Shown in pieces: positions 2,863-50,987 of a stretch of DNA of 52,747 nt. Each line of letters begins with the position of its first letter. Position 1 is the first letter of the stretch. The position numbers and the translations under genes were made by a program. The stretch spans positions 1 through 52,747 of the forward strand of contig CAIZGN010000208.1 of NCBI GenBank assembly GCA_903932505.1, in the 5' to 3' direction. The DNA comes from Candidatus Hydrogenedentota bacterium (GTDB lineage Bacteria > Hydrogenedentota > Hydrogenedentia > Hydrogenedentales > CAIZGN01). A model generated the notes under the pieces. It ran no database searches. It had not been told where the DNA came from and was given only the letters and a program-made list of their open reading frames with translations.

Positions 2863-5097
2863 ATGACATCCACCGTGGCGTTGTCGTTGACCAAGTGGGC
2901 TTTGGACGTGCTTTCCAAGCTCATCAAGGCTGATGTGCGTCTGCACAACGCCGAGGTCGTGCGCGAGAACATGTCCATCATCTTCGCGCCCAATCATTTC
3001 ACCCGGCTGGAGACGATTCTCCTGCCCTATTTCCTCAACAAGCACACCGGCCGCATGATTATGGGTCTCGCCGCAGCCGAGTTGTTCCAGGGGCCGGTGG
3101 GGGATTTTCTGCAGGCCGCCGGGGCCGTTTCCACCCGCGATCCAGATCGCGACAAAATCATCGTCCGATCCCTGTTACAGGGAAAAGACCCCTGGATTAT
3201 TTATCCCGAGGGCATGATGATTAAGGACAAGAAAGTTATCGGGCCACAGGGTGAACTCGAGATCTACAGCAAGGACGGTCGACGAGCGCCACACACTGGG
3301 GCCGCGCTGCTGGCATTGCGCGCCGAATTCTACCGACACATGATTGAGTGCCTGCATGCGCGACCGCATCAGGAGGGGCTGGATGAAACGCTGCAACGAT
3401 TCGGCCTTCAGTCGGTGGAGGAGGTTTTACAACGACGGACGGTCATCATCCCCATCAACATTACCTATTTTCCCATTCGTGCCCACGAAAACATTCTCCT
3501 GCGGCTCGCCAATCGCCTCAGTGACGACCTCAGCAAGCGCGCCGTCGAAGAATTGTCCGTTGAGGGGACGGTCTTGTCCGAAGAGACCGATATCGACATC
3601 ACTCTGGGTGAACCCATCGATGTGCGGGCCTGTCTGGATGCTCCGCAATACGCTTCCATCATGGCTTGCGGCCTAGACTCTCTGGAGCGGCTGCGCGAAG
3701 ACCCTGCACCGCTGTTGCGGGGCGCGGCGGACGGGCTCATGCAGCGGCACATGCGCGCAAGCTACGAACTGACCACGATTAATCATGATCACCTCTTTGC
3801 CACGCTGACCCGGCATCAGGGTGCGCGACGCTGGAACGAACGCCAGTACCGGTATCGCCTGTATCTCTGCGCCCGCGAAATTCGAATGCTCAAGCGTTAC
3901 CGCATGCATTCCCTGCTGGAGCAGTACTACGGGGACGTTCTTTTTGACGAATCCAGTCGGCGTTTTTCCGACTTTCTTGAACTGTGCGTGCGCGAGGAGT
4001 TGCTGAAGCGCGAAGCAGGGCGGGAAGGCCCCCGGTATCGCTGGGAACCGACTCCTCGGATTGTGGAACCTGATTTCCACTCCATTCGGTCCGAAGAGGT
4101 CACGCAGGTTATTGCCAATGAGTTAGAACCCCTCGTCGAAGCGGCGCGTATCGTGAAGCATATCGCTCAGATGCCCGGTGCGCTGGTCGAAAAGCGGGTT
4201 CGAAAGGCGCTCGAACAGGAGGACATCGCCCGCTTCGAGGAGGATTATGCCCGGTATTACGATCCGGAACTGAGCAAGGATCCCAACGCGGGTCGGCCTT
4301 ATCTGCTGCGTCCCTGGCGCGTTCGCGGGGGGATTGTGCTGGCGCATGGTTACATGGCCGGGCCGCTCGAGGTACGGGCCATGGCGAATTACTTCTGCCG
4401 AAAGGGATACATCGTCTATGGCGTGCGAATGCCCGGCCATGGAACCTCCCCAGCGAATCTGGCGACCGCCCATTGGGAGGAGTGGTACACGGCTTTCAGC
4501 CGGGGCTACGCCATTGTGCGCAGCCTTACCCCGCTGGTACATCTCGGCGGGTTTTCAACCGGTGGCACCCTCGCGTTGCTGGCGGCGGCCCGTAAGGGGC
4601 TTCAGGTGCAGTCCGTTTTTGCGGTGTGCGCCCCGCTGAAGCTGCAGAACTACAAGGCACATTTTGCCGCCTCGCTGGGCACGATTAACGCCTTCATCCG
4701 TCGACTGGATGCCCAATGGACCAAGTGGGACTACGTGGACAATCATCCCGAAAACCCGCACATCAACTACACGAAGAACCCCGTGGCCGGGATCAACCAG
4801 CTCATGCGGGTCATTGAGGCCATGGAGGGCGCACTGCCGGATGTTCGTATTCCGGCACTGCTCGTGCAATCCTCCAAAGACCCGATTGTGAATCCGTCCA
4901 GCGCTTCCATGATCTTCGAGCGGCTCGGCAGCCCGGCCAAGGAACTCACCTTTTTCGAGCGTAATCGCCATGGGATCATCAATGGGCCTGGTGCCGAGGA
5001 GGTCTTTGAGCGCATTCACCATTTCCTGCTTCGTTCCGCGTCGCAGGCGCGTGGCCCCGCTCAACTTGCGCCTTCCGGCGGCAAAGCATTAGAGTAG
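2863..5097 (+). CDS. Fusion protein: N-terminal PlsC/LPLAT-like acyltransferase + helical middle region + C-terminal alpha/beta-hydrolase (esterase/lipase-like)
   Basis: GGAGGAG lies just upstream of the ATG. Acyltransferase block I-like NHFTRLE (HX4D/E) and block III-like IYPEGMM are present. C-terminal hydrolase signatures are HGYMAG, nucleophile elbow GGFSTGG, SSKDPIV and NRHGII. Confidence 0.75.
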   Translation: MTSTVALSLTKWALDVLSKLIKADVRLHNAEVVRENMSIIFAPNHFTRLETILLPYFLNKHTGRMIMGLAAAELFQGPVGDFLQAAGAVSTRDPDRDKIIVRSLLQGKDPWIIYPEGMMIKDKKVIGPQGELEIYSKDGRRAPHTGAALLALRAEFYRHMIECLHARPHQEGLDETLQRFGLQSVEEVLQRRTVIIPINITYFPIRAHENILLRLANRLSDDLSKRAVEELSVEGTVLSEETDIDITLGEPIDVRACLDAPQYASIMACGLDSLERLREDPAPLLRGAADGLMQRHMRASYELTTINHDHLFATLTRHQGARRWNERQYRYRLYLCAREIRMLKRYRMHSLLEQYYGDVLFDESSRRFSDFLELCVREELLKREAGREGPRYRWEPTPRIVEPDFHSIRSEEVTQVIANELEPLVEAARIVKHIAQMPGALVEKRVRKALEQEDIARFEEDYARYYDPELSKDPNAGRPYLLRPWRVRGGIVLAHGYMAGPLEVRAMANYFCRKGYIVYGVRMPGHGTSPANLATAHWEEWYTAFSRGYAIVRSLTPLVHLGGFSTGGTLALLAAARKGLQVQSVFAVCAPLKLQNYKAHFAASLGTINAFIRRLDAQWTKWDYVDNHPENPHINYTKNPVAGINQLMRVIEAMEGALPDVRIPALLVQSSKDPIVNPSSASMIFERLGSPAKELTFFERNRHGIINGPGAEEVFERIHHFLLRSASQARGPAQLAPSGGKALE

Positions 5098-39882: not shown

Positions 39883-40191
39883 ATTACAGGGTTCTTCGGG
39901 TCCCCGGATCGGTCTCTGTTGAGGCCAGCGTATTTGGGCGTGTCACCCCCGTGGACAGGTTCAGCCGTCCGACGTGGCACTAAAAATATGAGGAAGCAAC
40001 CGGCCACCTCTCGTGGGTGGCTGTGTAAAACACCGTGGATGCCGGCCTCGCCGGAGAATTCCCTGCACCCATAGCCAGTTTGGTTGAAAGGGTGTCGCTC
40101 TGTCCGGCGGATTCGCCGGGGTGACAGTGATGTGGGAACGACTCCAGGCGCTTTTCTGTTCTACATCCGGCATGCACGCATGGGAGCGGTC

Positions 40192-42486
40192 ATGTTCAAG
40201 CGAACAACGATGGATAAGTTCAGTATTGGAATGCGCTGGGCACTGCCGGGGGGATTACTTTTCTCCTTGATGGCTGCCTTGCTGACCGGTGGCTGCGCCA
40301 CCACCAGGCCTACGGAAACCCACCAGTTTGATCCCGCCCCGCGTGCCAATGTGAAGACCGATGACCTCGATCCTGTCAATAATCGGCCTGTCGTTGAACT
40401 TTTGCGGGAGGCCGCCAAGGCCTTCGAAGATGGCAACAAGGCCGAAGAGGCCGGTGATCATAAGAAATCCGTCGAGTGCTACGCCCTCATGCTCAAGCGC
40501 ATGACCGAGGCAGACATGGATCCTTCGGTGTTCTATTCCATGCGCAAGGAATTCGGGAAGATCCTCAATTCCACCAATCACCACTCCAAAACCCATCCCA
40601 ACCAGTTGGACTCCGCAGCCGGAGAAAAGGGCGACCTCCGGGTTCCGTTTCCCCTGCCGGAGCCGGTTCTGGCCGAAATCGAGTTCTGGCAACACACCAT
40701 TCCCGGGAAATTCCAGACCTTCCTCAATCGCAGCCCCCGCTACATGCCCTATATGCGAAGGGAATTTGAAAAAGCCGGTCTGCCCCCCGATGTGGCTTGG
40801 CTCGCCCTAATCGAAAGCGGCTTCAGCACCTCCGCGACCTCGCCTGCAGGGGCGGGCGGGATGTGGCAGTTCATGCGCCCCACGGCCACTCGGTACGGTC
40901 TGCAGCAGGATACTTATGTCGATGAGCGCAATGACTGGAAGTCTGCCACCCGAGCGGCCATTGAATACCTCAAGTACCTGCGTGATGAGTTTGATGGTGA
41001 TTGGGCTCTCGCGCTCAGCGCCTACAACATGGGCGAGGGCGGTCTGCAGCGCTCCATTGACGCCAACGGGGGCGACCACGATTTCTGGAGCCTCATCCAG
41101 ACGCCTCCGGCCTCGGACCGCATTCGCCTCGAAACCAAACGCTACTATCCGCTGTTTCTCGCGGCCATGATTATCGCCAACAGTCCCGAGCGCTACGGAT
41201 TCACCATTACCCCTCAGCCGGAAGAAAGTACGGCGGAGGTGCGCGTCAAGGGTATGTATGCGCTTTCCGATTTGGATAAGGCCATGGGCTATAGCTCTGG
41301 AACCCTTTCCAAGCTCAACCCTGAACTCATCAAGGAAGTCACCCCGCCCAACCGCGAATTCCGGGTCGCTGTGCCTGCTGCGGATGAAGAAAAGTTTGCC
41401 GCCGCCATCAAAGACATGCCTCAGGTCGAAATATACGCCAAATATCAGGTGCGAAAGGGCGACACGCTTGCCAAGGTCGCCCAGCAATACGGCATGGATC
41501 CGCGCGATCTGGCCCAGTGCAACAAACTGCGTCCGGGCAGCTCCATTCGCAAAGGGCAGGTGCTTCGTGTACCCAATGCACCGGAAGGTCGCGGAGGCAG
41601 CACTGAAACCAAGGATGCGGACGACGACAAGAAAGACGCCCCCAGCGAAGAATCCAAGCTGGCCACCTCGGGCGACACGAACGGCTATACCGTCCGTCCC
41701 GGGGATACCCTTAACGAAATAGCCAAGTCCAACGGCCTGGAATTGCGGCAGTTGAAAGAGTGGAATCAGATTGACGAGGCGGCTGTCATCCGGCCCGGCG
41801 ACCGGCTGCATATTTCTGACCCGGCCCAACCCGCCAAGAAGGACACCGCCGCCGAGGCTGCTTCTGGCCAGTCGTATTCCGTGCAATCGGGCGACACGCT
41901 GAACAAAATCGCGCTGAAATACAAGGTTAGCGTCGATAATCTGCGCGCGTGGAATGGGCTTTCCGGCGACACGCTGCTGCACGTGGGCGACTCCCTGCGG
42001 CTCGCCGCCAAAGGGAAAGCAGCCCCGACCGCCTCCCCGGCCCCGGCCGCCGCAAAAACAGCCAAGACGGCCCCGACCATCAAGCACATAGTCGCCAAGG
42101 GCGACACGGCCAGCACCATTGCCTCCAAGTATGGCGTCAAGGTCAGTGACGTGCTTACCTGGAATTCCCTGACGCCGGCATCGGTGCTGAAACTTGGGCA
42201 GGTCTGCGTGATTCATCCCAGCGAAAAATCGGCGGCACCTGAAGTCGTGGCCAAGGAAGTAAAGGAAGCCCCTGCTGAGCGAACACAACTCGCCGAGGCC
42301 AAGGACCCCGCCCCCAAGGCGGCCAAAGCGGCGGAGCCCATCGTGCATGTGGTGTCCAAGGGCAACAACCCGTCCGGGATTGCCCGCCAATACGGTGTGC
42401 GCGTTAGTGATTTGTTCAAGTGGAATAATTGGCCCCAAACGCCCGTCCTCAAAGTGGGTGATGAGGTTAAGGTGTTTAAGAAGTAA
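40192..42486 (+). CDS. Membrane-bound lytic murein transglycosylase (MltD-like) lipoprotein with five LysM domains
   Basis: Start set at MFKRTT (GGGAG RBS), with lipobox LLTGGC. The SLT catalytic block is LIESGFSTSATSPAGAGGMWQFM...AYNMGEG. The five LysM repeats are YQVRKGDTLAKVA, YTVRPGDTLNEIA, YSVQSGDTLNKIA, HIVAKGDTASTIA and HVVSKGNNPSGIA. Confidence 0.85.
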   Translation: MFKRTTMDKFSIGMRWALPGGLLFSLMAALLTGGCATTRPTETHQFDPAPRANVKTDDLDPVNNRPVVELLREAAKAFEDGNKAEEAGDHKKSVECYALMLKRMTEADMDPSVFYSMRKEFGKILNSTNHHSKTHPNQLDSAAGEKGDLRVPFPLPEPVLAEIEFWQHTIPGKFQTFLNRSPRYMPYMRREFEKAGLPPDVAWLALIESGFSTSATSPAGAGGMWQFMRPTATRYGLQQDTYVDERNDWKSATRAAIEYLKYLRDEFDGDWALALSAYNMGEGGLQRSIDANGGDHDFWSLIQTPPASDRIRLETKRYYPLFLAAMIIANSPERYGFTITPQPEESTAEVRVKGMYALSDLDKAMGYSSGTLSKLNPELIKEVTPPNREFRVAVPAADEEKFAAAIKDMPQVEIYAKYQVRKGDTLAKVAQQYGMDPRDLAQCNKLRPGSSIRKGQVLRVPNAPEGRGGSTETKDADDDKKDAPSEESKLATSGDTNGYTVRPGDTLNEIAKSNGLELRQLKEWNQIDEAAVIRPGDRLHISDPAQPAKKDTAAEAASGQSYSVQSGDTLNKIALKYKVSVDNLRAWNGLSGDTLLHVGDSLRLAAKGKAAPTASPAPAAAKTAKTAPTIKHIVAKGDTASTIASKYGVKVSDVLTWNSLTPASVLKLGQVCVIHPSEKSAAPEVVAKEVKEAPAERTQLAEAKDPAPKAAKAAEPIVHVVSKGNNPSGIARQYGVRVSDLFKWNNWPQTPVLKVGDEVKVFKK

Positions 42487-42647
42487 ATCCAGAGGAGCGG
42501 GACAGCATTCTCCCGCCCCCCGTAAACCGTAAGGCGCATTGCTTCGTTTTCAATGAGTAAACCGGTGTAGCGGGTCGCTGTGAATGGCTCGCTCGGCGAT
42601 TGTAGGTTTTTTGCCGTTGCAATGTGCCGAATGTTCCGCACTGGGGT

Positions 42648-42676
42648 TTGAAGAAGCCGGGTACAGGTGGTATACT
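42648..42676 (+). promoter_or_regulatory. Extended -10 sigma-70-like promoter in front of the small-peptide array
   Basis: TTGAAG (42648-42653), a 17-nt spacer ending in TGG, then TATACT (42671-42676), giving TGnTATACT. It lies about 70 nt upstream of the first small ORF. Confidence 0.55.
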
Positions 42677-42744
42677 GCCATACGTGCCCAAGAGGCCGGG
42701 CGCATGGAATGTAGCCCATCAAAGGGCCGAGAGGGATATAGATA

Positions 42745-42894
42745 ATGAAGCATATACGAACAGTTTCAAAGAGCCGGGATAGGGCACCTCAAGCTGCGGC
42801 ATCCACATCGATCGGGCTATTTCTGGAGTTCTTCACAAATCTCTTGAGCGCGGTAGCCACCTTTTTCACAGGCAAGGAATCCGCTTCCGCCTGA
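42745..42894 (+). CDS. Small ORF P1 (49 aa), candidate precursor or bacteriocin-like peptide
   Basis: Hand translation: MKHIRTVSKSRDRAPQAAASTSIGLFLEFFTNLLSAVATFFTGKESASA. GAGGGA lies 8 nt upstream. It shares the MKHI(R/K)..S N-terminus and the FTNL and T..T.K....SA blocks with its paralogs. It is not in the supplied ORF track. Confidence 0.65.
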   Translation: MKHIRTVSKSRDRAPQAAASTSIGLFLEFFTNLLSAVATFFTGKESASA

Positions 42895-42948
42895 GGATAT
42901 CTGGTTCCCCGCGTTCGTCGGGGTCTTTATAAGGAGGGAAAAGCAACC

Positions 42949-43089
42949 ATGGTTCACATACGCGCGATCAGTAAACGGCCTTCCGTTGCGGCAGACCGGG
43001 CGACCTTGGGTCAGGTACTCACGGTAGTCGCCGAAATGTTCAGAGTATTGGTGACCGCCCTCACCGCGAAAAACGCCACATCGGCATAA
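42949..43089 (+). CDS. Small ORF P2 (46 aa), paralog of P1
   Basis: Hand translation: MVHIRAISKRPSVAADRATLGQVLTVVAEMFRVLVTALTAKNATSA. A strong AAGGAGGG RBS is at 42931-42938. The C-terminal TALTAKNATSA parallels TFFTGKESASA of P1. Confidence 0.7.
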   Translation: MVHIRAISKRPSVAADRATLGQVLTVVAEMFRVLVTALTAKNATSA

Positions 43090-43146
43090 ACTGCGGGTCG
43101 GGTTCACTCAAGAAACCGTTCCCCGGTTAGGAAAGAGGAGAAGGAC

Positions 43147-43335
43147 ATGCGGCATACACGAATGCTTACCTTGGTGCCTGCAAAGGCCGAGAGTGCCATT
43201 TGCACTGGGATTACCAGCGATTTTCAGGCGCAGCTCTGCTTCCTGTCCACGGCATTGACTTCGTTCTTTCTGCCAGTCATCCAACTGAAGCAGCCGGTGA
43301 CCCCCACGGACACGAACCAGACCGCTACCGCCTGA
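43147..43335 (+). CDS. Small ORF P3 (62 aa), divergent paralog with two Cys and a Thr/Pro-rich tail
   Basis: Present in the ORF track: MRHTRMLTLVPAKAESAICTGITSDFQAQLCFLSTALTSFFLPVIQLKQPVTPTDTNQTATA. An AGAGGAGAAGGA RBS is present. TALTSFF parallels SAVATFF of P1. Confidence 0.6.
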   Translation: MRHTRMLTLVPAKAESAICTGITSDFQAQLCFLSTALTSFFLPVIQLKQPVTPTDTNQTATA

Positions 43336-43390
43336 CCGGGCTGCGGGGGGCATCCTTTTTCGGGACGCCCTCAGCCAGAAGGATTTACAC

Positions 43391-43528
43391 ATGAAACGTT
43401 TGAAACCGTTGACTCAGGCGCCTGTTCGCGCCGCCTCGATTCCCGTGGAAGTGAAGATGACCTTTATTTCGCAGTTCATCGGTATCACCACCCCACTGGT
43501 TCAAGGGAAAGATCAGGTCAACGCATAA
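43391..43528 (+). CDS. Small ORF P4 (45 aa), divergent paralog
   Basis: Hand translation: MKRLKPLTQAPVRAASIPVEVKMTFISQFIGITTPLVQGKDQVNA. GAAGGA lies 7 nt upstream. It has the same basic N-terminus and hydrophobic core layout as the others. Confidence 0.55.
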   Translation: MKRLKPLTQAPVRAASIPVEVKMTFISQFIGITTPLVQGKDQVNA

Positions 43529-43589
43529 TCGAAGTCAATTGGGGTGTCATGCCGGCCGGCATGTCCGAAGTGTTGGACGGAGTCATGCA

Positions 43590-43712
43590 ATGAAACATAT
43601 CAAACGGATTTCCACCGTTGCCCGCGCGGAAGCCTTCACCAACCTGTTCAACGCCGCCTACAGGGCTTGGCGGGACTTCCAGTACAACAAGAAATACGAG
43701 ATGGGCATCTAG
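43590..43712 (+). CDS. Small ORF P5 (40 aa), paralog of P1
   Basis: Hand translation: MKHIKRISTVARAEAFTNLFNAAYRAWRDFQYNKKYEMGI. GGAG lies 7 nt upstream. MKHIKRIS matches MKHIRTVS of P1, and AFTNLF matches FFTNLL of P1. Confidence 0.65.
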   Translation: MKHIKRISTVARAEAFTNLFNAAYRAWRDFQYNKKYEMGI

Positions 43713-43826
43713 GCAACGTACCCGGGCAGATCAGCTCGGGTTTCGCTGACCTGCGCGATGTGCATCGGTCGCCGAGCAACAATCCGGCGACCTGGTGGAC
43801 GCTAAGCGTGGCGTTTGTTCTTGCCT

Positions 43827-43849
43827 CCCGGCGACTGGGTTTCGCCGGG
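43827..43849 (+). terminator. Hairpin (possible leaky terminator or processing site) between the peptide array and the enzyme genes
   Basis: Perfect 8-bp stem CCCGGCGA / TCGCCGGG with a 7-nt loop, followed by CTTCTTCTG. A second hairpin, GCAGATCAGC / GCTGACCTGC (9 of 10 bp), lies at 43726-43754. Confidence 0.4.
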
Positions 43850-43879
43850 CTTCTTCTGCACTGTTATCAAGGAGGCCCG

Positions 43880-44428
43880 ATGATTTCCGGCGCTCATGGA
43901 CATATCCGGCAGGCCGACGCCGATGACGCTGCGGCCCTTTGCGCCTGTTATCGATCCGGCGATCTGCGCGCCTCGGTGCTTGATGGAAAGCGTGAGCCGC
44001 TGGAACCCTCCTTGGATGAGCTGCGCGAAACCCTCGGCAGGCCCGAGGTCGGCCCGGGGCTCTTCTATGCCGCCGAAGATCTACAGGGATGCGTGCGGCT
44101 CTTCTGCGCCTTGCGTCGCGCTCCCTTCGAGGCGCGTTTCGGTGAATTTGTGGTCTTCTATGGAGAGGAATCCGAATTGGAACAGCCCATTGCCGGGGAA
44201 ATGATGGCGTTTATCCACCGCAGGGCATTTACAGAAATGAATCTCCGCAAGCTTACTGCGCACTGTCTCACGATTGAGGAACGCCTGGCTCAATTCCTGC
44301 GTTCCCACGGATTCGTGGGGCAGGGCATCATGCGCGAAGCCTACTACGCACGGGGCCGGTGGCACGATTTTGAGGCTCTGGCCCTTTTGGCTTCGGATGC
44401 ATTGGAAAGGCCAGCATGCCCATCGTGA
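43880..44428 (+). CDS. GNAT family N-acyl/acetyltransferase (RimJ/RimL-like)
   Basis: Start set at MISGAHGHIRQADADD, with AAGGAGG at 43869-43875. The GNAT C-terminal pattern is LRKLTAHCLTIEERLAQFLRSHGFVGQGIMREAYYARGRWHDFEALALL. The longer ORF-track N-terminus overlaps P5 and the hairpin spacer. Confidence 0.8.
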   Translation: MISGAHGHIRQADADDAAALCACYRSGDLRASVLDGKREPLEPSLDELRETLGRPEVGPGLFYAAEDLQGCVRLFCALRRAPFEARFGEFVVFYGEESELEQPIAGEMMAFIHRRAFTEMNLRKLTAHCLTIEERLAQFLRSHGFVGQGIMREAYYARGRWHDFEALALLASDALERPACPS

Positions 44429-45048
44429 CGGATACCTTTCTGCGCCGCGCCGAGCGTGGCGACTTGGACACCGTGGCCGCATGGATGGAGCGGCCCGACT
44501 TCCAGCATTTTCTCTATGGCGACCCGGCCCGCGCGCCCAAGCAGGTGCGCGCCCAGATTGTGGCCATGCTGGGTCGCGCCGCCGGACACACCATGCCGGG
44601 CGGCATCTATCTCATCATTGATTCAAAATCCAGTGGGCCACTTGGCCTGCTATCGCTCCAGAACATCAGTTGGCGCAATCGCTCCTGCACGGTCGATGTG
44701 TACCTTGGTGAAGAATCCCGACGCAGCCGCATGACCTCCGCCATCGCCGTGTATCGTGCCCTCGAATATGGCTTTGACGAGTTGAACCTCCACCGCATCG
44801 GAGCCTTTATTTACGCATTCAACACCGCGTCCTGGCGCATCATGGAATTGAGCGGCGCCCGCCGCGAGCTTACCCTGCAGGCCCATGTGCCCCGCGATGG
44901 AAAACTGCACGACATGTACGGCTACGGCCTTCTCAAACCGGAATTCGACGCCCTGCGTGACCGATATCGTCGGCATGCGGATGGCGGGTTTTCACTGCGT
45001 GCCATGATCGAGGCCATGGCCGGAGACGCGGCAGAGGGCGACACGTGA
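44416..45048 (+). CDS. GNAT family N-acyl/acetyltransferase (RimJ/RimL-like), second copy
   Basis: 13-nt overlap with the previous gene. GNAT blocks are LRRAERGDLDTVAAWM, RNRSCTVDVYLGEE and LNLHRIGAFIYAFNTASWRIMELSGARRELTLQAHVPRDGKLHDMYGYGLL. Confidence 0.8.
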   Translation: MPIVTDTFLRRAERGDLDTVAAWMERPDFQHFLYGDPARAPKQVRAQIVAMLGRAAGHTMPGGIYLIIDSKSSGPLGLLSLQNISWRNRSCTVDVYLGEESRRSRMTSAIAVYRALEYGFDELNLHRIGAFIYAFNTASWRIMELSGARRELTLQAHVPRDGKLHDMYGYGLLKPEFDALRDRYRRHADGGFSLRAMIEAMAGDAAEGDT

Positions 45049-45776
45049 GGGCCATCCTCGACACGACATGGGCGCGCGGACTCATCGTGCCGTTCCTTGT
45101 CCTGTTCTTTCTGCTCGCCGTTGGCACCCTCTGGCACAACCGGCGGGGAAGCACGCCTTCGCGATACTTACCTGCCGCTGCACTCGGTCTGCAGACCGCC
45201 CTGTTTCTCCTCGCCGTCTATTACGCAGCCCGTCTGGGTGCCTTTTCACGTGATCTGGCGTCGCCCGGTTACATCCTGCTGGGGCTCCTGCTGGGCCACC
45301 TGCTCTTCGCGATTTCCTTGCTGGTCACCCACAACGTGTGGCGCGACGCGATCGTGCATTTCTTCGACCTCGGGGGATTCGTCCGCTTTCTCGCGGAAAC
45401 CCCCACGCTCATCGGTCGTTTCATCGCGGTGAGCTTTGCGGAGGAATTGATTTACCGGGTGGCGGCCCAACCCCTGCTTGTGACGCTGACCGGACAGGCG
45501 TGGCTCGCCATTCTTCTCGTGGCGGCCGTTTTCTCCATCGTCCACAAGCACTTCTTTGAAAACGAGCTGTTGCAATCGGTGGAGTTTGCCGGTTTCTCCA
45601 TCGTGCTGGGCGTGTTGTACCATTGTTTCGGTAGCCTCAGCCTTGTGCTGGTGGTGCATACTGTGCGCAATCTTGAAAGTGTGTTCCTGGAGTATCTGCT
45701 CAAGGCGGGTGAACTGGGGGATGAAGCCCTTGCCCTCGCCGAACTCGAACAAGCCTACATGAAGAAGTCGGTGTAA
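45045..45776 (+). CDS. CPBP family intramembrane glutamic endopeptidase (CAAX protease/Abi-like, bacteriocin-immunity-type)
   Basis: GTG start inside a GTGA overlap. The protein is polytopic. The three CPBP motifs are EELIYR, FSIVHK and VVHTVRN. Confidence 0.8.
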   Translation: MRAILDTTWARGLIVPFLVLFFLLAVGTLWHNRRGSTPSRYLPAAALGLQTALFLLAVYYAARLGAFSRDLASPGYILLGLLLGHLLFAISLLVTHNVWRDAIVHFFDLGGFVRFLAETPTLIGRFIAVSFAEELIYRVAAQPLLVTLTGQAWLAILLVAAVFSIVHKHFFENELLQSVEFAGFSIVLGVLYHCFGSLSLVLVVHTVRNLESVFLEYLLKAGELGDEALALAELEQAYMKKSV

Positions 45777-46801
45777 TGACTATGAACGATTCCTATCTCG
45801 TGGAAGCCGAAGACATCAACAAGACCTTCTACACGCGCCATTTCCTGCAATTGGACGAGGACACAAGGCAACGGCGCTGGTACAAGATGAACACCGTGCA
45901 TGCCGCCGAATCCATTTCGTTTGGCATCCGTCCTGGCGAGGTCTTTGGCCTGCTCGGGCCCAATGGTGCGGGCAAGACCACCGCGGTCAAAATGATCTCC
46001 GGCCTCATCCGACCCGACAGCGGTCGGGTGCTGGTCGACGGAATGGATGTCGAGAAAAAACGAAAACAAATCCTCCGAAAAATTGGCGTGGTGCTCGAAG
46101 GAACCCGCACCAGCATCTGGCCCCTGACCCCGCTCGAAAATCTCGTCTACTATGGCAATCTCCGCAATGTGCGCGGAAAAATCCTCAAGGATCGCTCGCA
46201 CGAACTTCTCGATTTCATCGGCCTCAAAGAGAAAAAAAACGTGGAGGTGCGAAAGCTGTCCCGGGGACAGAAACAGAAGCTGGCTATCTGCATCGCCATG
46301 ATTTCGGATCCCATGGTGCTCCTTTTAGACGAGCCCACCACCGGTCTCGACGTGCAAAGTGCCCGCGCCATCAAGGACAAAATCATCGAGATGACCCGGG
46401 GGCAGGGACGCTGTGTTCTGGTGACCACCCACGACATGCACGTGGCGCAGGAATTGTGCGACCGCATCGGGATCATCGACAAGGGCAAGCTGGTCGCCTG
46501 TCAGCCCACCCCGGATTTGTTGGGACTCTTCTCCGAAGAAATGTATCTCTACCGTCTGGATCGCCAGCCCGAACCCGGGGAATTCTCCGGCATCAACGGT
46601 GTGCTGTCTGTCGAAATCGATCCCGAGGCGGAAGGCCCCAATATTCTTGTCCAACTGGATCTGTCGCCCGCCGCGCGGTCAGAGGCCTTCTATGGCCTCG
46701 CCGAACGCCTACGGGGTTTGGGTTGCGAGTTGCGTGCCATTGAGCACCGCCAGCAGAATCTTGAACGGGTATTCTTGAAGCTCACCACGAGCACCATATA
46801 A
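45776..46801 (+). CDS. ABC transporter ATP-binding protein (ABC-2/DrrA-like exporter subunit)
   Basis: TAATG overlap with the upstream gene. Walker A GLLGPNGAGKTT, signature LSRGQKQKLAI and Walker B LLLDEPTTGLD. Confidence 0.9.
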   Translation: MTMNDSYLVEAEDINKTFYTRHFLQLDEDTRQRRWYKMNTVHAAESISFGIRPGEVFGLLGPNGAGKTTAVKMISGLIRPDSGRVLVDGMDVEKKRKQILRKIGVVLEGTRTSIWPLTPLENLVYYGNLRNVRGKILKDRSHELLDFIGLKEKKNVEVRKLSRGQKQKLAICIAMISDPMVLLLDEPTTGLDVQSARAIKDKIIEMTRGQGRCVLVTTHDMHVAQELCDRIGIIDKGKLVACQPTPDLLGLFSEEMYLYRLDRQPEPGEFSGINGVLSVEIDPEAEGPNILVQLDLSPAARSEAFYGLAERLRGLGCELRAIEHRQQNLERVFLKLTTSTI

Positions 46802-46820: not shown

Positions 46821-47705
46821 ATGGGTTTTTTCTTGGTCATGAAAGCGGAGATTGTCCGCTCCTGGATCATCACGCGGCGGTATTGGTTCCGCACCGTCAC
46901 CGGGCTCGTCCTCAGCTACGGCATGCTGCTCGTGCTGGTTCTGGGCTTTCTCTTCAGTCAGGGCGACCCGTCGGGTGCGCCTCAGATTGCCGGGGTTCCA
47001 TCGCCCGTCAGTCTTATGCCTGCCCAGCAGGGGGAGGGTATCCTGGGCATTGTCAGCCAGGACAGTGAAAAGGCCACAAACTATATTCTGGGCTTCATCA
47101 TCGGCATCTTCGCCTTCGGCGTGGTCGGTATGTTCAGTCAGGGGCTGCAGGACATGGCGGGTTCCGGCGTTCTTGAACAGTTGTGCATGAGTCCCCACGG
47201 ACTCATCACCAATTTCCTCGCCCGATGTTTCGTCGGCTCGATCATGAGCATCTTTTCCTCAAGCATCATGGTGTGGATGGTGACCAAGACGGTTGGCGGC
47301 ATTCTGCACTTCAGCTTCGTTCCCGTGTTTACCCTGCTCTTCCTCACCTTCTGCAATCTGCTCGGATTCGGCTTCGTGGTTGGCGGGTTGGTGCTTGTCT
47401 TCAAACAGGTGGGTCAGGTCGCCATCATCCTCCGGATTGTCCTGTTCGCGCTTGCGGTGCTGGCGAAGGAGGAGCTGCTGGCCCGTGGTTGGGCCATTGC
47501 GGCCATCATGCATGCCATGCCCATCACGGACGCCGCCATTTGCCTCAAGAAGGTCCTCATACAGGACGTGGGCTTTGCGATTTTTGTGCACCCCTGTTTC
47601 TACTGGCTGATCGCGAGCTGCATATTCTGGACCACGCTCGGCATGGGGCTGTTCCGGTATTTCGAGGACTGGAGTCGCTCCAAGGGAACGCTGGGAGCCT
47701 ATTAA
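46821..47705 (+). CDS. ABC-2 type transporter permease
   Basis: GGAAGGA RBS. About six predicted TM segments. It lies directly after the ATPase gene. Confidence 0.75.
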   Translation: MGFFLVMKAEIVRSWIITRRYWFRTVTGLVLSYGMLLVLVLGFLFSQGDPSGAPQIAGVPSPVSLMPAQQGEGILGIVSQDSEKATNYILGFIIGIFAFGVVGMFSQGLQDMAGSGVLEQLCMSPHGLITNFLARCFVGSIMSIFSSSIMVWMVTKTVGGILHFSFVPVFTLLFLTFCNLLGFGFVVGGLVLVFKQVGQVAIILRIVLFALAVLAKEELLARGWAIAAIMHAMPITDAAICLKKVLIQDVGFAIFVHPCFYWLIASCIFWTTLGMGLFRYFEDWSRSKGTLGAY

Positions 47706-47706
47706 C

Positions 47707-49539
47707 ATGAAAACTGCCGGGTTGCATCGCTTTGAAGAAGAGGGAAAACGGTTTGCGGTGGACACCGAAACCTGCTTCTGCTTCGAATGCGACGCGGTCT
47801 CCTGGGATGTGCTTGAACATTACCCAGAGGCCAGCGTAGCCCGGTTGGCGCACCTGCTCGAGGGGCGGTACTCGCAGCGGGAGATCGAAGAGGTCGTCGG
47901 CGAGCTCGAATGGCTGCGATCCTGCAACTCCATCCTGCCCGCCCTTTCGCAGGAAGTGCTTCAGAAACAGTTTGACGTTGAAACCGGACTCCACACCTTC
48001 TCGCTGGACTGGCCCCTCGGTTCCATACGGCAAGTGCTTCCCCAGGCCCTGTCAATGTTCCTTGGTCGCTCAGGATTGCAGAAAAACCTGCGTTTCCAGC
48101 TCCGGCTTCCTGCGGATTTCAGTCCGTCCCCGGAACTGCTCTGGGCCTGTGCGGAAATCTTTCGCGCCGCACGCCTTGCCTCGAAAAACATGGGCCTGGT
48201 GCTGCATACCAAGGTTTCCGCCATCCGTGGAATCCCCGCCGCCCTAGCCGGGCAGGGTCTCGCCATCGAGTGGACGGTCAAGGAGGGCGAGGGCGAAACT
48301 GCGGTCTCCGGCATGGCCGCCTGCCTGAACGTTGTTTGGGGGAAGCTCGCGAAGACGCTGCAGGGCACGGTGGTTCTGTGTCCGCGCACCGGTTCGTTTC
48401 TTGAGGGGGTTCGCGAATTGGCGAAAGCCGGGTTCCCGCACATTCGCCTGGACATGGAAGGGGCTTATGCGGGATCGCCGGGCATCGATCCTGCAGACTT
48501 CACCGCAGGACTGCGCGCGACCGCACGCTTCTATGCGGAGGAGTTGCGATGCCAGCACTATTTCCGCCTCGACCCCATCGCCGAACTGTTCCACCAGATT
48601 TATGTGGGCCAGCCGGTTCGCCGCCGCGACCCGGCGGGGACCAACGAACTCGCCGTCGATGCGCGGGGCCACGTCTATCCATCGCGCGCCCTCTGCGGGA
48701 TTGACGCCTTCGACGCCGGCGGTCTCACCGAAAGTCCCCTCGATGAACGCGTACTCGACCCCTTCGAGGATCTCGGCAGCGTGACCACCCCGGCCTGCAT
48801 ACGCTGCTGGGCACGCAATCTCTGCGGTGGCGGTGCTGCAGCCGTGCACCACGCCTATACCGGATCGTTTCGGCATCCCCACGGCCCTTGGTGCGATGCG
48901 CAGCGTGCCTGGCTCGCGAATGCGGTGGCCGCCTTCAGTCTATTGTCCGCCGAGGGTATCAATTTCTCGCGCATGATTCAGGGACTCACCCCCGCCGAAA
49001 AGCCATCTTGGCGACTGCTCATGCGGGCCGCCTTCCGCATGCACATTGGTCTGCGCCCCATCGAGGAGGCCGACGCCGAATGGCTCACCCGCTGGGAAAA
49101 CTGGAACGAGGCGGCCTATTTCCTCCTGCACGAAAGCGGTCTTTTTCTTGCCACCCAATACGACCGCGAAATGGACTCCCTGCATCCCCCGGCCTATGAG
49201 AGCGAATTCGTGTTGGTGCACAAGAACAGCAAGCCCTTCGGACTGATCAAAATACGGCCCGACCGCGTACCCGGCGTCGCCCTGCTATGGCTTTACTTCC
49301 GCAATGAAGCGGACTACGCCTCCAAATCCGTCCGCGAATCGTTTCGCTTTCTCCTCGGCGAGACCGCCGGTCAGCAGCAGCTCCGACGGCTGCTGTGTCC
49401 CGCAGGGCCCGGCGATACGGGACTGGCGCAATTCTTGACCGCCGTGGGATTTCGCGAGGAGGGTGTCCTGCGTGAAGCGCTCTTCCTGCACGGCAAGCAC
49501 CACGACATCACGCTCTTCTCGTACACCGTTCCCGCTTGA
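47707..49539 (+). CDS. Fusion protein: PqqD-like RiPP recognition element + Cys-depleted radical-SAM/SPASM-like body + C-terminal GNAT domain
   Basis: The N-terminus RFAVDTETCFCFECDAVSWDVLEHYPEASVARLAHLLEGRYSQREIEEVVGELEWL fits the PqqD/RRE pattern. The SPASM-like segment is GTNELAVDARGHVYPS...TPACIRCWARNLCGGG...GPWC. No CX3CX2C occurs anywhere in the protein. The C-terminal GNAT is LRPIEEADAEWLTRWEN...LRRLLCPAGPGDTGLAQFLTAVGFREEGVLREALFLHGKHHDITLFSY. Confidence 0.7.
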   Translation: MKTAGLHRFEEEGKRFAVDTETCFCFECDAVSWDVLEHYPEASVARLAHLLEGRYSQREIEEVVGELEWLRSCNSILPALSQEVLQKQFDVETGLHTFSLDWPLGSIRQVLPQALSMFLGRSGLQKNLRFQLRLPADFSPSPELLWACAEIFRAARLASKNMGLVLHTKVSAIRGIPAALAGQGLAIEWTVKEGEGETAVSGMAACLNVVWGKLAKTLQGTVVLCPRTGSFLEGVRELAKAGFPHIRLDMEGAYAGSPGIDPADFTAGLRATARFYAEELRCQHYFRLDPIAELFHQIYVGQPVRRRDPAGTNELAVDARGHVYPSRALCGIDAFDAGGLTESPLDERVLDPFEDLGSVTTPACIRCWARNLCGGGAAAVHHAYTGSFRHPHGPWCDAQRAWLANAVAAFSLLSAEGINFSRMIQGLTPAEKPSWRLLMRAAFRMHIGLRPIEEADAEWLTRWENWNEAAYFLLHESGLFLATQYDREMDSLHPPAYESEFVLVHKNSKPFGLIKIRPDRVPGVALLWLYFRNEADYASKSVRESFRFLLGETAGQQQLRRLLCPAGPGDTGLAQFLTAVGFREEGVLREALFLHGKHHDITLFSYTVPA

Positions 49540-49558: not shown

Positions 49559-50098
49559 TCAACCGCCCGGCGCGGACTCCAGTATTTTCACCACCTCGGT
49601 CTGCCGCTCTTTTCTGGCAAGATCCAGCGGGGTGCGCCCGGCGCTGTTCTTCTCCGCACAATCCGCGCCGCGTGACCGTAATAAAGCCACCATGCCAGTC
49701 TGGCCGAAGAGCGCAGCCGTGTGCAGCGGTGTATCGCCGAACTCATCCTTGGCGGCAAGTGCCACACCGTGCGCCAGCAACCACACCGCCTCCGCATCCC
49801 GCCCCATCATCGCTGCGACATGCAGCGGCGTCATCCCGGTGCGGTCCCGGGTCTCAAGCGTGCCCCCGTGCTGCAACAAGAGTTCCATGAGGTCAACGCG
49901 CCCCATCGTCACGGCATAGTGCATGGACGTCTTGCCCAAGCTGTTCACGGTGTTCACACACGAAGGATCCTGTGTCAGCAGTGCTTCCAGCGCCTGTTTG
50001 TCGCCCCGGGCCACGAGGTCGTGCGGTCGATCCGCGCAACCCGCGAGGGCCAGCAACGCAACGCCCCAGACCAGCAGTTGACTATTCCTTCTTTTCAT
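49559..50098 (-). CDS. Ankyrin-repeat lipoprotein
   Basis: Start set at MKRRNSQLLVWGVALLALAGC (lipobox). Four ANK repeats are present (GKTSMHYAVTMGRVDLMELLLQHG, GMTPLHVAAMMG, GDTPLHTAALFG, GRTPLDLA). It overlaps the upstream gene by 17 nt. Confidence 0.8.
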   Translation of the reverse strand: MKRRNSQLLVWGVALLALAGCADRPHDLVARGDKQALEALLTQDPSCVNTVNSLGKTSMHYAVTMGRVDLMELLLQHGGTLETRDRTGMTPLHVAAMMGRDAEAVWLLAHGVALAAKDEFGDTPLHTAALFGQTGMVALLRSRGADCAEKNSAGRTPLDLARKERQTEVVKILESAPGG

Positions 50099-50987
50099 CC
50101 GCCGGTTCCTTCTCCGTTTTTTCGGGCTTCTCTTCCTTGATCGTTCCCCGGTGCACAAATTCCCACGATTCTGTAAACACGAGCGGGGCACCCAGCGAAA
50201 CATCCTGCGACGCGCTTTGCAGCGCGGCCCCGTAACTCCGCGTGGCATCGTCCAGCACACAGAAGAACGGCGTGGCATTGTCCGGGGTGGCATCTTCTGC
50301 GGTTGCTTTCTCAATCGTCCGTTTCCAGAATCCGGATCGATTTTCGAGGGAGAAACTGAGGACGGCGGCACCCAGCACCGCCTTGTTCACTGAACTCGTG
50401 GGGGGGACGGGGATCAGCCAGTAGTTCATGGAGCGAACCACCACCGGGGCCAATTTTTCTAACCCGGCCAACGGGAGAATCTCGGTTTTTTCCTTCTCCA
50501 CGCGGATGGTGCTGCGCAGCGGAACCCGCACCGTGTTGCGTACCGAATATCGCTTACTCTCCTGCGACTGCGCCAGCAAAGTCACCGTGTAGCGGGCTTT
50601 GGCCTCGTCGCCCTCAAGGCGCAGCTCCTTTTTCATGCGCACCCCGAGCTTTTCCGAAACCGGCCCCAGCAGGATAACGGAGTGGGCATCCTGAAACTCC
50701 ACCGAGGCGGGTCCGCGACGCAAGACCGCCTCGCGTTCTGGCGCGGGAAAGACATCCGTCACTAGACCGCCGGGATCCACCCAGCCACTACCCGCGCGGG
50801 CCTCCTCCTCAACCAGCAGCCGCTCCATGAAATTCGCGCCGCCGGGAAACCCCGCAAATTGCACAGAGAACAGCTGCGGGTCGACTTCGATCCGAATTGC
50901 GCTGTTTTCGAGAATGATCGGGCCTGCGCAAAAGCAGGCGTACATGGCAATCCACACTCCAGACACGTTTTCTCCTCCGCAGGCCAT
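50082..50987 (-). CDS. Hypothetical protein (beta-rich, lysine/glutamate-rich tail)
   Basis: A long ORF with ordinary composition. The start is uncertain, at 50987 (MACGG, GGAGGGG upstream) or 50945 (MYAC). The upstream part of the ORF track entry would run into the divergent mqnA-like gene. Confidence 0.5.
   Translation of the reverse strand: MACGGENVSGVWIAMYACFCAGPIILENSAIRIEVDPQLFSVQFAGFPGGANFMERLLVEEEARAGSGWVDPGGLVTDVFPAPEREAVLRRGPASVEFQDAHSVILLGPVSEKLGVRMKKELRLEGDEAKARYTVTLLAQSQESKRYSVRNTVRVPLRSTIRVEKEKTEILPLAGLEKLAPVVVRSMNYWLIPVPPTSSVNKAVLGAAVLSFSLENRSGFWKRTIEKATAEDATPDNATPFFCVLDDATRSYGAALQSASQDVSLGAPLVFTESWEFVHRGTIKEEKPEKTEKEPADEKKE

Follow-up and report, generated by a model that had tools for sequence, protein, structure and literature searches.

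We analysed a 52,747-nt stretch of contig CAIZGN010000208.1 from a Candidatus Hydrogenedentota bacterium (hereafter the window), in which five small open reading frames (ORFs), named P1 to P5, stand in tandem on the + strand just ahead of an operon for modifying, proteolytic and transport proteins. An original prediction, made from the letters of the window, had taken these ORFs for precursor peptides with a conserved leader and a diversified core. The comparative analysis described here suggests that they are the substrates of a pathway derived from the SCIFF/ranthipeptide system. The features of the array are as follows.

P1, 42745..42894, + strand: 49 amino acids (aa); leader MKHIRTVS..., hydrophobic helix IGLFLEFFTNLLSAVATFF, then GKE and the tail SASA
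P2, 42949..43089, + strand: 46 aa; leader MVHIRAIS..., hydrophobic/amphipathic helix, then AKN and the tail ATSA
P3, 43147..43335, + strand: 62 aa; leader MRHTRMLT..., two-Cys core C..I..DFQAQLCF, hydrophobic helix, LKQP and a long polar tail
P4, 43391..43528, + strand: 45 aa; leader MKRLKPLT..., core AASIPVEVKMTFISQFI, then GKD and the tail QVNA
P5, 43590..43712, + strand: 40 aa; leader MKHIKRIS..., aromatic amphipathic helix AEAFTNLFNAAYRAWRDFQY, then NKKYE and a tail
Putative sigma-70-like promoter, 42648..42676, + strand: TTGAAG, 17 nt and a TG-extended TATACT, about 68 nt upstream of P1 (consensus scan)
Conserved element of about 45 nt, 43545..43589, + strand: just upstream of P5, with a 16-nt perfect palindrome CATGCCGGCCGGCATG (43548-43563) and the Shine-Dalgarno (SD) site of P5, GGAG (43579-43582)

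Coordinates, start sites and selection of the five ORFs

An ORF listing reproduced all five hand translations of the original prediction exactly and at the same coordinates, with lengths of 40-62 aa. The gaps P1-P2, P2-P3, P3-P4 and P4-P5 measure 54, 57, 55 and 61 nt, in agreement with the spacing of 54-61 nt that had been described, and the blocks named as shared between the peptides are all present (FTNL in P1 and P5, SAVATFF in P1 with TALTSFF in P3, and the T..T.K...SA ends of P1 and P2). A purine-rich ribosome-binding site does precede each ORF, while its distance, put at 7-10 nt, has to be widened to 7-11 nt, the site of P2 lying 11 nt upstream. Read from the window sequence, these SD-like sites are, from P1 to P5, GAGAGGGA, AAGGAGG, AGAGGAGAAGGA, AGAAGGA and GGAG. 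The remark that four of the ORFs were missing from the ORF track is consistent with a 60-aa cut-off: only P3 reaches 60 aa, and P1, P2, P4 and P5 were therefore absent.

For the comparative work, one genome per species was scanned for the 610-aa protein encoded at the end of the operon, which gave 110 relatives; 80 loci were fetched, and the set used for the family searches comprised 82 sequences. Homologous small ORFs were found at the syntenic position. All five orthologues, with their order kept, are present in locus L001, whose 610-aa protein is 79% identical to that of the window, and in locus L082, and 44/51 Hydrogenedentota loci having upstream DNA carry 1-6 peptide genes each. When the DNA was aligned with the orthologous loci, the ORFs proved to be conserved and the spacers diverged, and the indels within the ORFs were multiples of three. 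Frame-disrupting differences between relatives were looked for and none was found, the differences being in-frame and mostly synonymous.

The ratio of non-synonymous to synonymous substitution rates (dN/dS) was calculated by the Nei-Gojobori method for the pairs among the window, L001 and L082. For the window against either orthologue it was 0.03-0.16 per gene (P1, 0.08-0.15; P3, 0.10-0.16; P4, 0.11-0.16; P5, 0.03-0.13). With the five genes concatenated, dN/dS was 0.125-0.20. P2 gave 0.13 for the window against each orthologue and 0.45 for L001 against L082, the highest single value. Substitutions between the window and L001 were in excess at the third codon position (50/31/112 by position). 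As judged by sequence comparison, the five tandem ORFs are real, selected and paralogous protein-coding genes.

The opposite view is that the + strand ORFs arose by chance and that the true features are the minus-strand ORFs 42817-43107 and 43108-43392, which the original prediction had itself raised, or a non-coding RNA. These minus-strand ORFs are longer (96 and 94 aa), and antisense ORFs occur in the orthologous loci too. Their lengths and ends are unstable among relatives, however (96 vs 104 and 87 aa; 94 vs 134 and 147 aa), they are 25-58% identical, and their dN/dS is 0.3-0.75 with no third-position excess, whereas the + strand ORFs show a dN/dS around 0.13 with such an excess. The family profile described below has zero matches on the minus strand, and an Rfam scan of 42300-44000, which would bear on a non-coding RNA, returned no match. 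Because the minus-strand ORFs are not conserved and the + strand ORFs show selection, the latter are the coding features; the minus-strand genes are already refuted by the comparative data, and this view as a whole is extremely improbable.

The hexamers of the putative promoter are identical, and in the same relative position, in L001 and L082, where they form a conserved block amid diverged intergenic DNA; such conservation suggests that 42648..42676 functions as the promoter of the array. In a three-way alignment of the window, L001 and L082, the element 43545-43589 is almost invariant, and the P4-P5 spacer just upstream of it has diverged. A longer reading of P5 from a TTG at 43539 (57 aa) was rejected, since a 1-nt indel between the window and L001 shifts the frame upstream. 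ATG 43590 is thus the conserved start of P5, because the indel in the TTG extension breaks the frame in L001, and for the same reason the conservation of 43545-43589 is not due to coding. This element may be an operator, an internal promoter or a processing site for P5, and its RNA fold is no better than that of shuffled sequence (z = 0.5). Terminator-like hairpins after P1 and P5 in the window are not claimed here, as none is found at the corresponding places in L001 or L082.

The peptide family and its operon

The six genes downstream of the array are tightly packed and lie on the same strand:

GNAT1, 43880..44428, + strand: 182 aa; Pfam Acetyltransf_4 (E = 2e-7); the best PDB matches, which are weak, are SpeG-type GNATs
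GNAT2, 44416..45048, + strand: 210 aa; Pfam Acetyltransf_3 (E = 1.6e-15)
CPBP (Rce1/CAAX-like) glutamic intramembrane protease, 45045..45776, + strand: 243 aa; Pfam Rce1-like (E = 6e-11)
ABC transporter ATPase, 45776..46801, + strand: 341 aa; Pfam ABC_tran (E = 1.4e-30)
ABC-2-type permease, 46821..47705, + strand: 294 aa; weak match to Pfam ABC2_membrane_3 (E = 8.5e-4), below the family cut-off
610-aa CteB-like protein, 47707..49539, + strand: RRE, radical-SAM-like barrel, SPASM domain and C-terminal RimL/RimJ-like GNAT

The order GNAT1-GNAT2-CPBP-ABC-ABC2-SPASM is conserved wherever there is enough upstream DNA, with the exception of four loci without GNAT1. GNAT1 is syntenic in every peptide-carrying locus, and the ABC ATPase and the ABC-2 permease are syntenic in all loci; GNAT2 is the best-conserved enzyme of the operon, with 53-88% identity across loci. 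The motifs of the CPBP protein are intact (EExxxR as EELIYR, FxxxH as FSIVH and HxxxN as HTVRN), and it scores 42.9 bits against a cut-off of 22.4 with the Rce1-like model of Pfam. The permease shows long hydrophobic stretches by eye and looks like a multi-pass membrane protein.

With a loose regular expression for the N-terminal motif, 85 hits were obtained on the operon strand and 15 on the opposite strand of the 82 sequences. The profile search that the original prediction had proposed was then carried out with a hidden Markov model (HMM) built from these hits, and it recovered 121 ATG ORFs (143 six-frame segments), all of them on the operon strand. Every family match sits directly upstream of GNAT1, and in the 52.7-kb window the HMM finds these five ORFs only (E = 2.5e-13 for P1 and 1.7e-11 for P2). 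Such a pattern lies well outside what chance would give. The peptide genes recur in the order (P1/P2-type)n, P3-type, P4-type, P5-type and then GNAT1. P5 is the most conserved subtype, is always the last before GNAT1, and is present in most loci, often as the sole peptide. The P4 subtype (..APEVKLTF..PLF.NKDP) recurs across the phylum, the two-Cys P3 subtype recurs in many loci and among the database proteins P0127-P0155, and P2 is identical to an unnamed database protein, P0122.

A basic N-terminal consensus of about 14 residues, M-K(76%)-H(90%)-[I/L/V]-[R/K]-x-[I/V/L]-[S/T]-x-x-[P/R/K]-x-x-A(72%), is kept in about 135 peptides of all subtypes; an example of such a leader is MKHIRTVSKSRDRA. 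The cores that follow have 20-30 residues, fall into at least four subtypes and are hydrophobic or amphipathic, differing between paralogues. Their hydrophobicity and amphipathicity, which the original prediction had described, were computed: the 18-residue Kyte-Doolittle mean is 1.6-1.8 for P1-P3 (1.62 for P1), and the hydrophobic moment of P5 is 0.67. A Lys stands 3-12 residues from the C-terminal end in 112/135 peptides, compared with 52 in shuffled cores; the residue after it is N, E or D in 71%, and a short T-, E-, G- and S-rich tail follows. Most cores (115/135) are free of Cys, and the P3-type carries two conserved Cys.

The family is rare in public protein sets, with 31 matches in 5.8 billion sequences and 44 cluster representatives in 1.84 billion proteins, and wherever its members carry a name in any source, that name is "hypothetical protein". 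Pfam and NCBIfam scans of the five peptides gave no match (NCBIfam at E<=1). PDB searches with the family profile and with P5 alone returned chance matches only, and the 21-residue CteA chain was also not retrieved. The peptides thus form a new, uncurated family without a Pfam or NCBIfam model, most members of which are too short for gene callers.

These data also bear on the view that the peptides serve as small membrane or regulatory proteins with a housekeeping function. They could assist the ABC-2 transporter as accessory subunits, regulate it, or be components of the envelope specific to Hydrogenedentota, and their N-terminus would be a targeting or translation signal that is not removed. 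The marker enzyme of the operon is encoded in 110 species-level genomes, with the gene order conserved in the loci examined, and the orthologous cores are under strong purifying selection, most clearly in P5 (dN/dS 0.03-0.13); a basic leader followed by a hydrophobic helix in P1-P3 would moreover fit the positive-inside rule. Yet P5, which is both the best-conserved subtype and the most widespread one, lacks any hydrophobic segment, and a copy number of 1-6 with turnover of subtypes is what precursor arrays typically show, unlike stoichiometric subunits. Leader and enzyme also resemble SCIFF and CteB, as described below, which points to substrate-enzyme recognition instead. A housekeeping role is therefore very unlikely in our view.

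The CteB-like protein and the SCIFF-like leader

When the profile of the 610-aa family was searched against the PDB, the SCIFF maturase CteB (5WGG) was retrieved with E = 1e-35 over residues 4-435, far above every other structure, and Foldseek with an AlphaFold2 (AF2) model of the protein (pLDDT 75) found 5WGG as well (E = 5e-15, target TM-score 0.64). The AF2 model starts with b1-b2-b3-a1-a2-a3, which is the topology of an RRE, and its N-terminus aligns to the RRE of CteB. The C-terminal 170 residues match RimL, RimJ and SpeG-type GNATs in both the profile and the Foldseek searches. The SPASM model TIGR04085 scores 29.9 bits against a cut-off of 27, and the maturase model TIGR03974 scores 51.5 bits against a cut-off of 425.

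The radical SAM motif CX3CX2C was sought anywhere in the 610-aa protein family and occurs in 0/71 full-length homologues; the motif of CteB aligns to a variable, Cys-free insert. Since CX3CX2C is absent, the 610-aa protein is expected to be incapable of canonical radical SAM chemistry. Of the CX2CX5CX3C motif, CX2CX5C (71/71) and the distal Cys are invariant, and the fourth Cys, that of CX3C, is replaced. A further invariant motif, H7-R-F-E...D19-P-E-(T/S)-C23-F-C25-F-E-C28-D, lies on strands b1-b3 of the RRE (residues 1-30, window 47707-47800). Its CxCxxC is kept in 71/71 homologues, whereas CteB has no Cys at this position. The three Cys and one His of the motif might make up a binding site for Zn or Fe-S, or stand in for those ligands of the radical SAM cluster that have been lost. 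On the evidence of the alignments and the model, the 610-aa protein is a descendant of SCIFF maturases that has kept the leader-binding domain and gained a GNAT.

The leaders were compared with those of SCIFF precursors, whose genes were read from 80 metagenome loci (L083-L162) around CteB homologues. The 46 distinct SCIFF precursors start with M-K(95%)-H(100%)-I/V-K(93%)-T-I/L-N. In the Hydrogenedentota peptides of this comparison, position 2 is K in 82%, position 3 is H in 91% and position 4 is I/L/V; position 5 is R/K in 78%, position 6 is variable and position 7 is I/V/L, as against K (93%), T and I/L in SCIFF. A position-specific scoring matrix built from residues 2-9 of the Hydrogenedentota peptides ranked 3199 small-ORF starts, and SCIFF ORFs held 61 of the top 70 places. 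The leader of CteA binds the RRE of CteB as a beta-strand between b3 and a3 (PMC8326336). Both partners of this leader-RRE recognition are conserved here, and no other argument speaks as strongly for the five ORFs as substrates of the operon. The claim of paralogous precursors with a conserved leader and diversified cores has thus found support in the operon, in the RRE-bearing CteB homologue and in the SCIFF-like leader.

As a separate observation on the SCIFF loci, the best non-SCIFF small-ORF starts in Clostridia (MKEIKPLSVFPA / MKKVKPISIFSS) are leader-like, with M-K-x-I/V-K-P-L/I-S. Such ORFs may represent another unannotated peptide family, or chance.

SCIFF/CteAB is the nearest relative among known systems. 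The likeness to SCIFF (precursor CteA or Tte1186a) covers the maturase, with CteB homologous throughout the RRE, the barrel and the SPASM domain, and the precursors, which in both systems have about 45 aa and a shared start, MKHIKT(I/L)N in SCIFF and MKHI(K/R)x(I/V/L)(S/T) here. Both systems are also spread widely in one lineage and not patchily, SCIFF in Clostridia and the present one in Hydrogenedentota. The differences are equally plain. SCIFF possesses the radical SAM CX3CX2C, a six-Cys core (CGECQTSCQSACKTSC...) and one precursor, whereas here the motif is absent from all 71 homologues, the cores are helical and mostly Cys-free, and 1-6 precursors stand in tandem. Unlike CteB, the 610-aa protein carries the N-terminal HRFE...CFCFEC motif and the C-terminal GNAT domain, and two or three free GNATs, the CPBP protease and the ABC-2 exporter are further additions to what SCIFF contains. 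Since neither the six-Cys core nor the radical SAM motif is present, and the curated SCIFF models are not reached at their cut-offs, we regard the system not as a SCIFF system but as a derivative of one.

Unmodified bacteriocins are typically encoded with CPBP/Abi proteins and ABC transporters for immunity and export. The peptides might be real small proteins that stay unmodified: helical peptides that are secreted or inserted into membranes, in the manner of class II bacteriocins or phenol-soluble modulins. In that case the ABC-2 transporter and the CPBP protein would give only export, leader removal and immunity, and the GNATs and the SPASM protein would have some other task. Besides the neighbouring CPBP and ABC genes, this would suit helical cores that come near transmembrane hydrophobicity or are amphipathic, the lack of the radical SAM motif in every homologue, the atypical CoA loops of the GNATs, and the small number of universally conserved core residues. 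However, strong conservation extends to the CteB homologue with its RRE as well as to the SCIFF-like leader, which is hard to explain without leader-enzyme recognition, and the array stands in strict synteny with three to four GNAT domains. GNAT1 is lost along with the peptides, and there is neither a double-glycine leader nor a C39-peptidase ABC transporter. We consider unmodified peptides distinctly unlikely.

A proposed RiPP-like pathway, its relatives and its distribution

Given these results, we propose, with a probability of about 60%, that the five ORFs are tandem paralogous precursors of a pathway resembling those of peptides that are made by ribosomes and modified post-translationally (RiPPs) and descended from a SCIFF/ranthipeptide system. 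The features of the RiPP class are found here as small ORFs with SD-like sites under selection, a conserved leader with a variable core, and linkage to an RRE-bearing enzyme. The genomic data argue strongly for the status of the ORFs as precursors.

In the proposed pathway, the array would be transcribed from its own conserved promoter and the five peptides translated, coding being shown by selection and expression being presumed. The leader would dock as a beta-strand on the RRE of the 610-aa protein, as the homology of both partners to CteA and CteB suggests. More speculatively, the 610-aa protein might then act as a scaffold that binds the leader and offers the core both to the GNAT fused to it and to the two free ones, which could, on an equally speculative footing, acylate or acetylate the peptide at the conserved C-terminal Lys or at a new N-terminus. 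The CPBP protease, with its intact catalytic motifs, would cut off the leader and/or the tail, and the ABC-2 transporter would probably export the products and/or protect the producer.

Several points weigh against this proposal. No array stands next to the operon in 7/51 loci with upstream DNA, so that either array and operon need not be adjacent or the peptide genes of these loci lie at another place. The CoA-binding loop of GNAT2 keeps its Arg, while the GxG/A part is not conserved, and a well-conserved Q/RxxGxG/A loop is missing from each of the three GNAT domains (two by inspection only). The modification site is a guess, because only Ala14 and the C-terminal Lys are common to all subtypes outside the leader, and we infer the whole of the chemistry (modification, cleavage and export) from the genes present. 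The shared leader motif is short (about 7 residues), and convergence is possible. Conservation across a phylum is, finally, unusual for RiPPs of secondary metabolism.

The broad distribution of SCIFF among Clostridia has been taken to speak against an antibiotic function, and a role in quorum sensing has been cited (PMC8326336). In the same way, since the present cluster is kept in much of the phylum, a physiological role (signalling, or envelope/membrane-active) is favoured over that of a strain-specific antibiotic. In its fullest form, the proposal would describe a new RiPP class that arose from SCIFF by swapped chemistry, with a radical-SAM-dead, Fe-S- or metal-stabilised scaffold, a GNAT-acylated C-terminal Lys, CPBP trimming of the tail and/or leader, and a fixed set of acylated helical peptides that would be central to physiology, for signalling or for the envelope, in much of the phylum Hydrogenedentota. 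This is a tentative picture and unlikely to hold in all its parts; if true, acylation of Lys followed by Rce1-like trimming would be a bacterial analogue of eukaryotic CAAX processing, in which lipidation is followed by clipping of the tail.

GNAT maturases have a precedent in the selidamides, which are GNAT-dependent acylated RiPPs (PMC10849128). As in selidamide clusters, GNAT-fold enzymes are found here in a RiPP-type cluster (three domains in the window and a fourth in some clades), and by analogy the conserved near-C-terminal Lys is a plausible acyl acceptor. Selidamides are lipopeptides with a fatty-acylated Lys or Orn side chain. They have an NHLP/Nif11 leader, whereas the NCBIfam and Pfam scans found none here and the leader is SCIFF-like with about 14 residues. 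The GNATs here are, unlike those of the selidamides, RimL/RimJ/SpeG-like, and one is fused to a CteB-like scaffold.

SkfC of Bacillus subtilis belongs to the CAAX/CPBP family. The skf (sporulation killing factor) cluster of this species offers a precedent for the combination of a radical SAM enzyme, a protease and ABC export, and resembles the present cluster in its small precursor, its RRE-containing SPASM/twitch-type enzyme, the membrane protease SkfC and the two-gene ABC export/resistance module SkfEF (PMC8172795). It differs in that SkfB is an active radical SAM sactisynthase, in its single precursor, in the lack of GNATs and in a thioredoxin-like gene, and its product is a cyclic Cys-containing peptide.

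Class II bacteriocin loci, in turn, are similar in their tandem small helical peptides with amphipathic or hydrophobic cores, encoded beside a CPBP-family protein and an ABC transporter. Class II bacteriocins have a GG/GA leader and a C39-peptidase ABC transporter; the leader consensus here lacks GG, and the ATPase and the ABC-2 permease are separate and without a peptidase domain. An RRE-bearing maturase homologue, 3-4 GNAT domains and phylum-wide rather than strain-specific occurrence further set the present cluster apart from these loci. Among the papers covered by the literature searches, none described this system or connected Hydrogenedentes, SPASM and GNAT with one of this kind.

A radical-SAM-dead homologue of SCIFF maturases fused to a GNAT would be a new enzyme architecture, and the pathway would be a natural case in which the recognition module (leader and RRE) is retained while the chemistry is swapped. 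It would thus bear on the origin of RiPP classes and on the engineering of leader-guided acyltransferases. Hydrogenedentota is an uncultured phylum, known almost only from metagenomes, and the cluster is a clue to its biology; since the cluster is conserved across the phylum, the peptides probably matter for the basic biology of these bacteria.

More than 320 homologues of the 610-aa protein were found, nearly all the named ones from metagenome-assembled genomes (MAGs) of Candidatus Hydrogenedentes/Hydrogenedentota; among them P0003 is a SPASM protein with 60% identity. The cluster could serve as a simple sequence or taxonomic marker for Hydrogenedentota contigs. The same cluster was also seen on contigs labelled as uncultured Nitrospiraceae/Nitrospirales, Candidatus Bathyarchaeia and Robiginitomaculum (L002, L008, L011, L015-L018, L033, L034, L060 and others), which are likely mis-binned or mis-labelled MAG contigs. 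A PADLOC defence scan of the operon found generic ABC-ATPase similarity only.

The genes on either side of the array and operon are the following:

Lytic transglycosylase (SLT), 40084-42486, + strand: 800 aa with several LysM repeats; upstream flank of the array
Ankyrin-repeat protein, 49559-50371, - strand: 270 aa; downstream of the operon

The LysM/SLT gene probably lies outside the system, because it is conserved only in the closest relative, L001; as this upstream gene is not conserved, the array marks the 5' edge of the cluster.

The loci also vary at this edge. GNAT1 and the peptide array are both missing from L011, L017, L026 and L028 (region upstream of about 4580-4800); in L011 a gene for an RND efflux pump abuts GNAT2, so that the array is truly absent there. 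GNAT1 seems to travel with the array. L077 has GNAT1, with mnmE abutting it, and here too this position holds no array; L081 likewise has GNAT1, and the HMM finds no peptide genes there. The peptides of such loci may be encoded elsewhere or lost.

In one clade (L006, L007, L014, L020, L022, L023, L035 and L061), an extra GNAT2 paralogue lies between GNAT1 and GNAT2 (3948-4658 in L006), which gives four GNAT domains; the HMM finds only 1-2 peptides per locus in this clade, mostly of the P5-type, and the second peptide of L006 starts with GTG. Finally, the 97-aa database protein P0156 holds two family units in one frame, a P2-like unit followed by a P3-like one (MQHVRVVT...), which is explained either by natural fusion of two members of an array or read-through between them, or by the loss of a stop codon.

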